Part shown: positions 2,468-10,583 of the stretch, piece by piece
How positions within the stretch are numbered: position 1 is the stretch's first letter
Layout of the letters: every line of letters starts with the position of its first letter
DNA from: Candidatus Gottesmanbacteria bacterium RIFCSPHIGHO2_01_FULL_40_15
GTDB lineage: Bacteria > Patescibacteriota > Microgenomatia > 2-02-FULL-39-11
Length of the DNA: 64,000 nt
Direction: 5' to 3'
Assembly: GCA_001779115.1 (NCBI GenBank)
Contig: MFJF01000005.1
Coordinates: 142,888-206,887, forward strand
Made by a program: the position numbers and the translations under genes
Notes under the pieces: model-generated
Databases searched by the model: none
What the model was told of the DNA's origin: nothing
The model's input: only the letters and a program-made list of their open reading frames with translations

Positions 2468-3952
2468 ATGGGCAGGTTAATTAACAGAAATCCCAATTTT
2501 TGGCATCGGTTATTTGAGATATCTTTTCCGCTTCTGACATGGCTAACGGTAACTCTGCCGCTCTGGCTTTCCCCTTTCCATCCGGCAGTAGTAGCCTATT
2601 TTCTTTTGACGTTTGCCGTTTATTTTTTCTATAAATCATTAACAGTGACCATCTATTCAACCTGGTCATACCTGAAACTGAGAAAAATGTCGCATATCAA
2701 CTGGAGTAAACTGGCTAAAACAGAAAAAGATTTTAAAAAACTATACCACGCGGTAATCATTACCAACTATAAGGAAAATACGGAAAAAGTAAGCCTTACT
2801 TTGGAAAAACTGGCTTTACAGGATTTTCCGAGAAAAAGAATGATTATTATTTTGGCTATGGAAAAAAGAGAAGGAGAAGAAGCCCAAAAACGGGCAAACA
2901 AACTCCTGACTAAATTCAAGAGTAGATTTCTTGAAATGGGAGTGACATTTCATCCGGTTTCAGGAAATGAAGTGGTCGGAAAAGCCAGTAATTCCGCCTG
3001 GGCAGCTAAATTCCTAAGTTATAGGATCAGGAAACTCGGTATCGATCCGGATTTTGTAACAGTAACTTCCTGTGATGCGGATTCCCTGATTCCTCCCAAA
3101 TACTTTTCCTACCTGTCATATTTGTTTTTAACCGATAAAGACAGGTATTACCATTTTTATTGGGCTCCGGTTCTTCTTTACAGTAATTTCTGGGAAGTAC
3201 CTTTACCGGTAAGGGTCCAGGCAACAATTTCTTCAATCATCAGACTTTCCGCCTTAGCCAAACCCAGTTCGCTGATTCAGATATCCACTTATTCGTTATC
3301 CCTGAAAATGCTCCAAAATATCGGATATTGGGATACAAATATTATTCCTGAAGACTGGCACATTTTCCTTCAGGCATTTTTTACGTACGGCGATAAGGTC
3401 AGAACTATGCCGATTTATCTTATTATTACGCGCGATGCGGTTAACAGTTATACTTTTTGGTCAACCATGAGATCAAGGTATGAACAGGAAAAGCGTTGGG
3501 CATGGGGAATTACGGACATCCCGTATGCCATATACAAGTTTTTTACCACCCCTCATATTCCTGTTCTGCCGAAATTATTCAGATTGATTTATGTTATGGA
3601 AACGCATCTCTTCTGGCCGACTTCATTTTTTCTTTTGACTTTGGGAGCTTATGCTTTACAACTGATTAATCCGGCATTTAACAGGACAGCACTGGGACAT
3701 AATCTGCCTAAACTTTCAGGACTTATTCTGACAATGACAACTTTATTTCTTTTGGTATTAATTGTAATTGACGCAAAATCCAGACCGAAAAGACCCGCCA
3801 GTATTTCGATAGCCAAGACACCGCTGCTTCTTTTCCAATGGATTTTATTACCGCTTGTTTCCTTCCTGTTATCAAGTCTTCCGGCACTTGAAGCTCATAC
3901 CCGGCTGCTTTTAGGCAAAAGATTGGAATATAAAGTAACGGAGAAAATATAA
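2468..3952 (+). CDS. Family-2 processive glycosyltransferase (cellulose/chitin/hyaluronan-synthase-like), integral membrane
   Basis: 494 aa. N- and C-terminal TM helices flank a GT-A domain with a DxD-like SCDADS motif and a QxxRW motif (QEKRW) typical of processive beta-glycan synthases. Confidence 0.65.
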   Translation: MGRLINRNPNFWHRLFEISFPLLTWLTVTLPLWLSPFHPAVVAYFLLTFAVYFFYKSLTVTIYSTWSYLKLRKMSHINWSKLAKTEKDFKKLYHAVIITNYKENTEKVSLTLEKLALQDFPRKRMIIILAMEKREGEEAQKRANKLLTKFKSRFLEMGVTFHPVSGNEVVGKASNSAWAAKFLSYRIRKLGIDPDFVTVTSCDADSLIPPKYFSYLSYLFLTDKDRYYHFYWAPVLLYSNFWEVPLPVRVQATISSIIRLSALAKPSSLIQISTYSLSLKMLQNIGYWDTNIIPEDWHIFLQAFFTYGDKVRTMPIYLIITRDAVNSYTFWSTMRSRYEQEKRWAWGITDIPYAIYKFFTTPHIPVLPKLFRLIYVMETHLFWPTSFFLLTLGAYALQLINPAFNRTALGHNLPKLSGLILTMTTLFLLVLIVIDAKSRPKRPASISIAKTPLLLFQWILLPLVSFLLSSLPALEAHTRLLLGKRLEYKVTEKI

Positions 3953-6724: not shown

Positions 6725-7564
6725 TTACTCGACTTTATCGGCATAACGTCCTGAAATCCAACCTTCTTTACCCTCAGCATAAATGATTTTAATCCAGCCT
6801 GATTTTTCATCAAGGTACGGCACCTTATCGCCTGGTTTTAACTGGCCGACTTCGGTTGCCGAAATTGAAGCATCAAATCTGACCCGAAGAAAACCTGTCG
6901 GAGTTTCATTCACTAAAACGTATGGTTTTGATAACTGATCCCCTTCACCGGTTTGGGTATCAGTTTCCGGTGTCGGAGTGGGTGTTTCTAACTGTTCTCC
7001 GGACAGACTCAGTTGAAAATCTACATTTAAACGGTAATCCGGAACTGCTTTTACTCTGACAGTTCTGCCGATAAATCCGGTTGAAGTGACGGTGATGTCA
7101 TGCTCACCTTCGCTTATAGGAATATTTATAGGAGTTGCCCCTTTTTCCAAACCGTCAATTGATACCGAAGCGGCATCAGGTGTTGAAGAAACTGAAATTT
7201 CGATTTCATCATCACCGATTTTATCCAATGTGATAACTTCTCCTGATGTGGTCAGTTCACTTTGGCCTAATTCTTTTTTTATATAGGTAAGAGTTGACGG
7301 GTTAAGTGTTATTTTGTCCTGCCAAACCGAAGCGGATGATTGGGAATCATCAGGCACAAGTTTTATTACAAAAGAACCGGCAGGGTGACGGCTGTCTAAA
7401 GGTGTTTTTCCAATAAATTTTTCATCCAGATATATTCCGGCTACGGGAGTAGAAACTACTTTTAATCCGGCAACTGATGACTTACCGGCAAATATAAGCT
7501 TATAGAGAATATAGGCTATGGCTGCAAGAAATAAGACAATGACAAGAACAGTCTTCCTGCTCAT
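6725..7564 (-). CDS. Secreted/membrane-anchored PEGA-domain protein with C-terminal SH3b-like domain
   Basis: Start placed at the first in-frame ATG (MSRKTVLVIV..., signal anchor). The ORF track's TTG start at 7600 looks like an over-extension. Two PEGA-like repeats (VSTPVAGIYLDEKFIGKTPLD, VSIDGLEKGATPINIP) and a C-terminal SH3_3-like segment (GFLRVR...GWI..GRYADKV). Confidence 0.55.
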   Translation of the reverse strand: MSRKTVLVIVLFLAAIAYILYKLIFAGKSSVAGLKVVSTPVAGIYLDEKFIGKTPLDSRHPAGSFVIKLVPDDSQSSASVWQDKITLNPSTLTYIKKELGQSELTTSGEVITLDKIGDDEIEISVSSTPDAASVSIDGLEKGATPINIPISEGEHDITVTSTGFIGRTVRVKAVPDYRLNVDFQLSLSGEQLETPTPTPETDTQTGEGDQLSKPYVLVNETPTGFLRVRFDASISATEVGQLKPGDKVPYLDEKSGWIKIIYAEGKEGWISGRYADKVE

Positions 7565-7629
7565 AGACTTTATATTACATGAGAAGAACCTTATTTTCAA
7601 TCGAAATGAAGCAATTCCGACTTGATAAA

Positions 7630-7656
7630 TTAGCAGTCTATATACTAGACTGCTAA
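7630..7656. promoter_or_regulatory. Perfect CIRCE-like inverted repeat TTAGCAGTC-N9-GACTGCTAA (candidate HrcA operator)
   Basis: Read directly: 9-bp arms are exact reverse complements with a 9-bp spacer. It matches the CIRCE consensus TTAGCACTC-N9-GAGTGCTAA at 16/18 positions, and the two changes are symmetric. It lies 66 bp upstream of the PEGA/SH3 ATG and 116 bp downstream of the transposase stop. Confidence 0.45.
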
Positions 7657-7745
7657 TATAAAGTTGCCCTCCGTCTTCCCGGAGGACTTCAGAAGGATGT
7701 GAGACTATATGGCAATTTTAAGATTTGATCCGTTTTCAATGTTAT

Positions 7746-8469
7746 GGGGACGGGGGTAGATTTGAGCCTTGTTATATGCTAAAAGCCTTCATTTTTCTGT
7801 GCGTGGCAAATACTGGATTTCCAATGACATCATTATTATTTTTATACGGATCATATTCATCAAGATTTAGATTCATTCCATCCTTAATAAATTTGAGATA
7901 ATTTTCAATTCTGTTTCCCTTATCACCTAATAGGATGATAATTTTATTCATGTCTATTATCTTTCTTGAACTATTGTTTAAGTACTCTCTTAAACTGCTA
8001 TATTTATATTCTTCCGGGTTTTTGGTCATAGCCGATTTATACGGATTTAGGTGAATATATCTTGAAACTTCCAAAAAATAAGACTCTTTCTGAACAAGCT
8101 TACTTTTAAATCTATCTTGAAATAAAGGTCCCTGTCTATTGTATTTTTTATTGAAATATAGGGAATAACTTGTAAATAATCTCCCCATCAATTTAGCAAT
8201 TGGTGTTCTCTTTTCCTCAACCAGAAAATGATAGTGATTAGGCATTAAACAATAGGCATAAAAACACCAATCACCTTTCCGAAGAAGTCCATTTAATATT
8301 TCAAGCAATCTTTCATAATCTTTATCTTCATGAAATATTTGGTTTTTGTTAAGCCCCCTATTAAAAATGTGATAAAAACCTCCGGGAAATGTCAGTCTAG
8401 CTATTCTTGGCATTAATAATTTTATAGCACTTTTAAGCTGTCAATACAATATATTCTACCCCCGTCCCC
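7746..8469 (-). mobile_element. IS200/IS605-family (HUH Y1 transposase) element bounded by perfect 14-bp inverted repeats
   Basis: GGGGACGGGGGTAG (7746-7759) and its exact reverse complement CTACCCCCGTCCCC (8456-8469) flank the tnpA ORF. The element is 724 bp, the size of an IS200-type insertion, and sits between groEL and the PEGA gene. Confidence 0.55.
7772..8413 (-). CDS. tnpA: Y1 HUH transposase, IS200/IS605 TnpA / REP-associated tyrosine transposase (RAYT)-like
   Basis: 213 aa. HUH motif (LMPNHYHFLVEE) and the Transposase_17 signature RYIHLNP...EEYKYSS carrying the catalytic Tyr region. Confidence 0.8.
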   Translation of the reverse strand: MPRIARLTFPGGFYHIFNRGLNKNQIFHEDKDYERLLEILNGLLRKGDWCFYAYCLMPNHYHFLVEEKRTPIAKLMGRLFTSYSLYFNKKYNRQGPLFQDRFKSKLVQKESYFLEVSRYIHLNPYKSAMTKNPEEYKYSSLREYLNNSSRKIIDMNKIIILLGDKGNRIENYLKFIKDGMNLNLDEYDPYKNNNDVIGNPVFATHRKMKAFSI

Positions 8470-8479
8470 GATATACAAA

Positions 8480-8506
8480 GCCCCGAGAAAATCGGGGCTT
8501 TTTTTT
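8480..8506 (-). terminator. Intrinsic (bidirectional-type) terminator after groEL
   Basis: GCCCCGA-gaaaa-TCGGGGC hairpin 22 bp past the groEL stop. T8 run on the + strand; A-run before and a UUUGUAUAU tract after on the - strand. Confidence 0.5.
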
Positions 8507-8528: not shown

Positions 8529-10175
<1,647 letters not shown>

Positions 10176-10220: not shown

Positions 10221-10523
10221 TCAGTCAATAACCGCGAGAATATCTTTTTGTTCGACAAGCAACCATTCTTCCTGTCCTACCCTAATTTCTGAGCCTCCCC
10301 ATTTTTTATAAACTACTTTCTGGCCGACTTTAACATTCATGGGGAGTTTTTTTCCGTCATCTGTGACTGCTCCTGAACCGACTGCCATTATTTGTCCTAT
10401 TTGGGGTTTTTCTTTAGCGGTTTCAGGAAGAACTATGCCGGAAGGTGTTTTGGCTTCCTCTTCAAGCGGTTTTACCAAAACATTATCCAAAAGGGGTTTA
10501 ATTGAAGACGCTTTAATATTCAT
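10221..10523 (-). CDS. groES: Co-chaperonin GroES (Cpn10)
   Basis: 100 aa. IKPLLDNVLVK...mobile loop...GKVVAVG-type Cpn10. Preceded by a GGAGGT RBS. Confidence 0.93.
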   Translation of the reverse strand: MNIKASSIKPLLDNVLVKPLEEEAKTPSGIVLPETAKEKPQIGQIMAVGSGAVTDDGKKLPMNVKVGQKVVYKKWGGSEIRVGQEEWLLVEQKDILAVID

Positions 10524-10556: not shown

Positions 10557-10583
10557 TTGGCACTTAATAAAGACGACTGCTAT
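10557..10583 (-). promoter_or_regulatory. Degenerate CIRCE-like element (aTAGCAgTC-N9-aAGTGCcAA on the - strand) at the groES promoter
   Basis: Matches 7/9 in each CIRCE half and abuts the -10 hexamer, the classical HrcA operator position. Same variant half-site (TAGCAGTC) as the perfect palindrome at 7630. Confidence 0.4.

Follow-up and report, generated by a model that had tools for sequence, protein, structure and literature searches.

What kind of element lies directly behind the groEL gene of Candidatus Gottesmanbacteria bacterium RIFCSPHIGHO2_01_FULL_40_15, a host from the candidate phyla radiation (CPR; Patescibacteria)? The stretch analyzed herein (contig MFJF01000005.1, positions 142,888 to 206,887; termed the window, 64 kb in length) contains a gene for an HUH/tyrosine (Y1) enzyme that is enclosed by terminal inverted repeats (TIRs); the terminator of groESL lies on one side of it and a CIRCE-like palindrome on the other. 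An earlier note on this DNA had placed the gene correctly between these two landmarks (8477–8501 and 7630–7656) and had considered it either a RAYT with repeats resembling repetitive extragenic palindromes (REPs), meaning a REPtron, or an atypical insertion sequence (IS). The latter label is superseded, as the layout already bears a name: TIRtron for the unit and TIRYT for the gene. The 724-bp unit is probably such a TIRtron—a TIRYT gene with its own promoter, enclosed by TIRs whose tips are the cis sites of a TnpA_REP-like HUH/Tyr enzyme, and relocated as one piece. It is a new, short (~0.72 kb) CPR member of the named class and lacks the helix-turn-helix (HTH) domain.

Both names were introduced in 2013 by Di Nocera, De Gregorio & Rocco (BMC Genomics 14:522; PMC3733652) for RAYT-like genes that carry TIRs instead of REPs. 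According to that paper, many TIRYTs have TIRs at a similar distance from the gene, which share the motif GGGGWSAS (most, not all, TIRYTs), and the TIR families are moderately abundant or absent elsewhere in the genomes. In the classification of Quentin, Siguier, Chandler & Fichant (2018, BMC Genomics 19:475; PMC6006769), TIRYTs constitute TnpAY1 subclass 2.1, which ranks second in size among the subclasses. It is devoid of REPs, and a C-terminal HTH (Bac_DnaA_C, HTH_23, or HTH_28) is present in all TIRYTs.

Ends and extent of the unit

The gene is encoded on the minus strand. The unit and its two landmarks comprise the following features:

8455..8469, minus strand: 5' (promoter-side) TIR, GGGGACGGGGGTAGA on the minus strand, with the tip GGGACGGGG invariant in the clade
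8414..8454, minus strand: predicted promoter region inside the unit, from the 5' alignment of ten units
7772..8413, minus strand: TIRYT gene, 213 amino acids (aa), RAYT-like Y1 HUH nuclease (H60-H62, catalytic Y119, without C-terminal HTH)
7746..7760, plus strand: 3' TIR, GGGGACGGGGGTAGA on the plus strand, 11 nt past the stop codon
8477..8501, no strand assigned: terminator-like hairpin between groEL and the unit, with a T8 run after the hairpin on the plus strand
7630–7656: perfect CIRCE-like palindrome, TTAGCAGTC-N9-GACTGCTAA

The 14-mer GGGGACGGGGGTAG occurs at two exact sites of the window, 7746–7759 (+) and 8456–8469 (−), and no third site was found in the 64 kb even when two mismatches were allowed. 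Its expected count is 0.15, and two sites were obtained in 0 of 100 dinucleotide shuffles. The perfect TIRs described in the earlier note are real and conserved, and the TIR-to-TIR unit of 724 bp stands; only the length of the repeat needs correction from 14 to 15 bp (GGGGACGGGGGTAGA/TCTACCCCCGTCCCC, 7746–7760 and 8455–8469, with 694 nt separating the arms).

Ten homologous units with 48–89% aa identity were compared. They lie in unrelated neighborhoods, which outside the window are:

L088: after a DUF134-like gene
L107: hypothetical gene / fn3, PBP
L109: CHAP region
L110: HAD / mraZ
L114: 1.2-kb contig, neighborhood not identified
L115: hypothetical genes
L116: DsbD / GerE
L117: ftsZ / ileS
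L128: PIN toxin / atp operon

In all ten units, (R)GGGACGGGG is located ~55 nt (54–56 nt in the clade) before the ATG. An inverted copy of the tip follows 11–30 nt past the stop codon in all units except L110; in L088, this 3' arm belongs to the contig portion with a sequence identical to that of the window. Farther inward, the TIR varies from unit to unit, and both arms are identical there in four of the eight comparable units: GTAGA/GTAGA in the window, GCAGA/GCAGA in L109 and L115, and AGCGA/AGCGA in L116. In L107, L114, L117, and L128, the arms differ at one or two inner positions. The chance repeat, which the earlier note had envisaged should the 14-mer be absent elsewhere, is answered by these homologous units, as they carry the same tips in other genomes. 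The core GGGACGGGGG was found solely as flanking pairs, with no extra copies in the 64 kb or in 126 fetched loci.

The extent of the homology was determined by pairwise blastn for nine loci. It runs from the first G of GGGAC to GTCCC, within 0–3 nt, whereas the flanks are unrelated. For L109, the alignment with the window covers exactly 2533–3254, which is the TIR-to-TIR span. Homology with L109, L114, and other copies stops at the 3' TIR of the window, and on the 5' side it starts at 8468; the match of L088 to the window likewise sets in at 8468 and extends only inward. As homology is bounded by the tips, the true ends of the unit are the TIR tips at 7746/7747 and 8468/8469. Judged by their conservation, the outer tips RGGGACGGGG are the cis sites of the unit.

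The 5' regions of the ten units align in a fixed order: the invariant GGGACGGGG, an invariant TTG (−35), a 17-nt spacer, TGnTATAAA, and the ATG. Herein, TATA is invariant, TG is conserved in at least 90%, and the ATG follows 7 nt after the −10 hexamer. In the window, these elements are a −35 TTGTAT (8449–8444), a 17-nt spacer, and an extended −10 TGcTATAAA (8429–8421), again 7 nt from the ATG. This standard promoter geometry predicts an internal extended −10 promoter. No Shine-Dalgarno sequence is seen before the ATG in the alignment of the ten units, and the mRNA is therefore predicted to be leaderless.

Two of the copies deviate from this layout. L110 (3946–5218) contains an intact 209-aa gene and the 5' TIR, while no 3' TIR is recognizable over the 590 nt that precede mraZ; this copy may have been immobilized. 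L088 (1–1233), the sole close relative in a metagenome scan with the single protein, is a mosaic contig. Its positions 142–381 are ~70% identical to the window unit, and from 382 on, including the CIRCE and PEGA flank, it is 100% identical to the window apart from one single-nucleotide polymorphism. Either two TIRtron copies have recombined here, or the assembly is a chimera joined within the conserved HUH-coding stretch. An incomplete copy of the tip, GAGGGACGGG, is located in the left flank of L088, ~30 nt beyond the TIR. L088 was set aside as a second insertion and is kept only as evidence of another copy with a different left flank.

Probable movement of the unit and the case for a resident gene

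The groES–groEL...PEGA–GT4 synteny is shared by the Gottesmanbacteria genomes GCA_001779055 and GCA_001781015, in which the slot behind groEL holds parE/phd and not a TIRtron. Since its contents differ, the groEL–PEGA slot is a site at which mobile or accessory genes vary between genomes. GCA_001781015.1 has a TIRtron of its own (66% aa identity) beside the atp operon. By such comparisons of sequence, the element appears to be mobile as a unit. Within the slot, parE/phd lies on the opposite strand (L111, 1496–2069; L113, 3221–3794), and L113 additionally contains an aldo-keto reductase.

Several observations weigh against a mobile TIRtron. The exact protein is encoded on MFKB01000020.1 (GCA_001779385.1) and on many aquifer-metagenome contigs, without any change of surroundings. 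A nucleotide comparison of 14 contigs showed no difference in the 724 bp or in their position, and all 24 + 24 contigs read from this population have the gene at the groEL site. The comparison with an empty site, as proposed in the earlier note, came to nothing: the unit is present on all 24 longest contigs that encode the neighboring PEGA protein, and no precise empty site at nucleotide level is found in relatives because the nearest syntenic genomes, ~60% identical in the neighboring protein, are too distant. The 64 kb contain one copy of the unit. Single-copy in this stretch, invariant, and fixed in the population, it is thus quiescent or very rarely moving. In addition, the intact open reading frame (ORF) of L110 without a 3' TIR means that retention of the gene does not strictly need both ends. 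As to the class, the CPR proteins lack the C-terminal HTH reported for all TIRYTs in PMC6006769, and the literature searched contains the terms TIRtron and TIRYT only in PMC3733652 and PMC6006769 and no TIRYT biochemistry. The cleavage site, the strand used, and a panhandle intermediate, as outlined at the end of this article, are conjecture. Short contigs were also considered as a sign of multi-copy status, which was rejected, as the median contig of the collection measures ~1 kb anyway.

The best-surviving alternative is a domesticated, immobile RAYT-like host gene that serves the processing of single-stranded DNA in the host, its repeats being relics or cis-regulatory (for example, autoregulatory) sites. 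Such a gene is rather unlikely here, although it accords with the single, invariant copy at one fixed site in every sample, with the lack of satellite repeats in the 64 kb and the fetched loci, with the gene kept intact in L110, and with the strong conservation of the protein. Plasmid and phage searches yielded only distant and rare homologues. RAYT-class genes are generally single-copy and host-gene-like (PMC5581495), and Quentin et al. consider non-transposition roles for these subclasses (PMC6006769). However, homology in at least eight unrelated neighborhoods stops exactly at the TIR tips, and two Gottesmanbacteria with a syntenic groEL–PEGA region have the unit at different loci. Co-varying arms with an invariant tip are expected of transposon ends, and a regulatory purpose is not apparent for a 3' arm that lies past the stop codon.

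The enzyme and its class

The 213-aa protein matches Pfam Y1_Tnp (E = 8.6e-15) and no other Pfam domain. The HUH motif H60-Y-H62 and the stretch S-R-Y119-I-H-L-N-P are invariant across 30 homologues, which bears out the signature pointed out in the earlier note. N123 is invariant in these homologues as well, making the tyrosine motif Y-x3-N, and the spacing from H60 to Y119 amounts to 59 aa. The family profile matches the E. coli TnpA_REP (PDB 4er8) with E = 3.3e-7 along residues 1–145, compared with only E ≥ 0.59 for the TnpA of IS200/ISDra2; phmmer with the single protein sequence against the PDB sequences gave nothing relevant. An AlphaFold model (pLDDT 84.8) has 4er8_A as its top Foldseek match (E = 6.5e-9, TM 0.71), followed by the TnpA proteins of ISDra2, IS608, and IS200. 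The sole NCBIfam match is the equivalog model NF047646 REP_Tyr_transpos, with 70.7 bits against a cut-off of 80. With 4er8 best by both profile and predicted fold, an NCBIfam score under the cut-off, and Y-x3-N instead of Y-x3-Q, the enzyme is by these predictions RAYT-like, yet not an equivalog of the REP-associated RAYTs.

The members of the CPR clade are short. The window protein and those of L115, L116, and L117 consist of Y1_Tnp only, without a C-terminal HTH, and in alignment with longer relatives, the CPR proteins (209–214 aa) end before the HTH domain. Relatives of ~315 aa carry a C-terminal Bac_DnaA_C / Sigma70_r4 / HTH_23 domain.

The wider family was collected by scanning a genome collection with a 30-sequence alignment; among the matches listed, which include neither the genome of the window nor the close clade, the relatives have at most 48% identity. 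Significant gene-bracketing inverted repeats (score ≥12; shuffled maxima 8–13) are found in 65 of the 94 distant-homologue loci among these listed matches, which span 30–48% identity and many phyla. With the CPR-clade loci added, 69 TIR-flanked loci were analyzed. Both arms start with GGGWSRS in 41 of these 69 loci, again among the matches listed, and 17 match GGGGWSAS exactly. The tip variant GGGGACGG of the window recurs in L008, L027, L069, and L093. The dominant type consists of ~315-aa proteins with GGGGTCAGGTCT... TIRs of 15–35 bp; in many cases the ORF extends into the 3' arm, and only two core copies are found per locus.

Compared with the TIRtrons of the 2013 description, the unit shares the RAYT-like HUH/Tyr gene, the non-hairpin TIRs at a similarly short distance from the coding sequence, the few or absent TIR copies elsewhere (no further one in the 64 kb and the fetched loci), and an apparent lack of REPs in the species. 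Its tip GGGGACGG fits seven of the eight positions of GGGGWSAS, with G instead of A at position 7. It differs in the shortness of its protein and in its CPR/Patescibacteria host, which lies outside the 2013 sample. The TIR-to-TIR homology unit across contexts is a further addition, being a point that PMC3733652 does not address. With subclass 2.1, the protein shares the class 2 (TnpA_REP-like) core, a HuH-to-Y spacing within the reported 58–67 aa (PMC6006769), a conserved Ser-containing motif downstream of the core, and the lack of REP sequences nearby. Homologues that are 30–42% identical to it have the typical make-up of 2.1 proteins, a Bac_DnaA_C/HTH C terminus and GGGGTCAGGTCT TIRs, and it is homology to these HTH-bearing, GGGGTCAGGTCT-flanked proteins that suggests the tie to subclass 2.1.

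The folding of the ends separates the unit from IS200/IS605 elements and REPtrons. When the first and last 60 nt were folded as DNA on both strands, the result was not better than that of shuffled sequences (z = 0.09, 0.21, −0.43, and 0.50); hence, the ends contain neither subterminal hairpins of the IS200/IS605 type nor REP hairpins. The single-strand fold of the whole unit is closed by the TIR–TIR stem in both the minimum-energy and the centroid structure. As the protein is TnpA_REP-like, the ends are free of hairpins, and no further repeat copies are found in the 64 kb or the fetched loci, the unit belongs neither to the canonical IS200/IS605 elements nor to the REPtrons.

The REPtron of E. 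coli, a TnpA_REP (RAYT) gene with flanking REP/BIME sequences, is reportedly described in the work of Nunvar 2010, Ton-Hoang 2012, and Messing 2012 (PDB 4er8). If the unit were of this kind, the RAYT would mobilize REP/REPIN copies of the flanking repeat while itself staying put. The closest solved structure, the profile match, the only NCBIfam match, the inverted orientation of the flanking cis repeats, the single copy of the gene in the 64 kb, and a GTAG within the repeat all resemble a REPtron. Nevertheless, this explanation is very improbable: the NCBIfam score remains below the cut-off, the arms lack palindromic symmetry and do not fold into hairpins, a conserved GT[AG]G head is missing since relatives have GCAG or AGCG in place of GTAG, and neither the 64-kb window nor any of the fetched loci contains an extra core copy that would point to a dispersed REP/REPIN population. 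The suggestion of a RAYT with REP-like repeats is therefore not upheld.

A canonical IS of the IS200 group, moving by peel-and-paste via subterminal hairpins and bearing its inverted repeat incidentally, is largely refuted and hardly to be expected. The size of ~0.7 kb, a single Y1 gene with the Y1_Tnp match and the HUH Y1 catalytic fold, and the lack of a target-site duplication are shared with IS200, IS608, and ISDra2. In contrast, those elements carry hairpins on one strand and no TIRs, have Y-x3-Q (PMC6006769), and are usually multi-copy; the window unit has TIRs that are conserved family-wide, no hairpins on either strand, Y-x3-N, one copy in 64 kb, and a profile that favors TnpA_REP by far. 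The earlier designation as an IS200/IS605-type transposase holds for the HUH/Y1 gene and fails for IS200/IS605 in the narrow sense (4er8 with E = 3.3e-7, Y-x3-N), and the remark that TIRs are atypical for IS200/IS605 is confirmed by hairpin-free ends and conserved inverted repeats. The idea that an unrelated gene is bracketed by an inverted repeat through mere chance, for which only the short length speaks, is refuted by the shuffles and by the same tips at the same distances in ten independent units, and its probability is negligible.

Junctions, surroundings, and a possible mechanism

The borders of the 69 TIR-flanked units (138 ends) were searched for exact tandem duplications of 8–14 nt with a gap of 0–4 nt; relative to the TIR boundary, the inner end of a duplication had to fall between −2 and +10 nt. 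Such duplications are present at eight 5' ends and eight 3' ends, 16 of 138 altogether, where the locus-wide density predicts ~0.3 per set (~0.6 in total). This is a ~25-fold enrichment, and neighboring 13-nt bins contain 0–3 duplications. Some of the duplicated units consist of flank only and abut the TIR, others of flank plus the first 5–9 nt of the tip, and most have no microhomology at their borders. Examples are:

L117 (2919–2949): TTCCACCTGGGAC, two copies
L115 (2923–2955 and 3666–3687): TTTGTAGGGACG, two copies
L041: AAAGATTGGGGTCAG, two copies
L066: three copies

Flank/TIR-junction duplications, which measure 8–18 nt over all loci, are also seen in L017, L083, L116, and L109. The ends of the window's own unit show no junction duplication. 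The available portions of PMC3733652 and PMC6006769 do not report such duplications, which resemble the footprints that the repair of staggered tip nicks might leave.

On the minus strand, the locus is ordered as groES (10221–10523), groEL (8529–10160), terminator hairpin, unit, CIRCE-like palindrome, and a PEGA/SH3 gene (6725–7564). The groEL stop is located at 8529, and 7 nt separate the terminator hairpin from the start of the unit; relatives have an equivalent bidirectional terminator at the same place. In assembly ERZ28563625 (L002 / L121, 8255–9885), the groEL call is split into two ORFs (409 + 119 aa), probably owing to a frameshift or an assembly error. Upstream of groES, only a degenerate CIRCE is found (window 10557–10583, TTGGCACTT-N9-GACTGCTAT (+), three mismatches to the search pattern). 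It follows a TTGACA promoter and is less perfect than the orphan palindrome at 7630–7656.

The orphan palindrome overlaps a promoter-like site on the plus strand (TTGATA-18-TAGACT, within 7622–7761) and is followed by a hairpin (7666–7687), an AGGA, and a 16-codon ORF (7711–7761, +) that encodes MAILRFDPFSMLWGRG and then stops. This ORF, whose start presumably resembles the N termini of small heat-shock proteins, extends into the 3' TIR, where a TAG belonging to the repeat serves as its stop codon. The 7622–7761 region may be what is left of a heat-shock gene that was displaced; no remainder of an hsp20 gene was found in the window. A derivation of the ORF from the Phd antitoxin of the relatives was rejected, as the N termini differ. 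If the plus-strand promoter on the CIRCE side is active, transcription antisense to the TIRYT gene would result. The 3' TIR core is moreover straddled by a 24-nt direct repeat (7721–7744 / 7758–7781, 75% identity), which is treated as chance because ~17 such pairs are estimated for the AT-rich 2.2 kb.

Covalent linkage through a 5'-phosphotyrosine is established for the TnpA of IS608 and for TnpA_REP. By analogy, the Y1 enzyme of a TIRtron would, via such an intermediate, introduce a nick into single-stranded DNA at the GGGGAC tip or directly beside it. The inverted tips would provide complementary ends on one strand and, thus, a 15-bp stem that closes the unit, similar to a REPIN-type hairpin with the gene in its loop. 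This stem, or a synapsis of both tips by the protein, may replace the subterminal hairpins of IS200/IS605; alternatively, the protein may act on opposite strands at the two ends. The whole TIR-to-TIR unit would have been relocated as one piece during CPR evolution. A circular intermediate, if formed, would show abutted tips, with CCCCGTCCCC directly joined to GGGGACGGGG.

As the tip is conserved in the HTH-less clade, it is probably the catalytic core that recognizes it, a point relevant to Quentin et al. (PMC6006769), who ask whether the TIR is read by the HTH. A more far-reaching proposal, tentative and with the odds against it, is that TIRtrons are autonomous IS elements that move whole, pairing or synapsing their inverted tips on one strand and using a single long-range stem in place of two hairpins; the HTH-less CPR clade would then be the minimal form and the junction duplications its footprints.

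For annotation, it follows that a Y1 gene with TIRs should be labeled neither as an IS200/IS605 element nor as a RAYT/REPtron. The CPR clade supplies a minimal version of 0.72 kb and 213 aa with boundaries defined to the nucleotide and, hence, a convenient substrate for first in vitro tests of cleavage and transposition.

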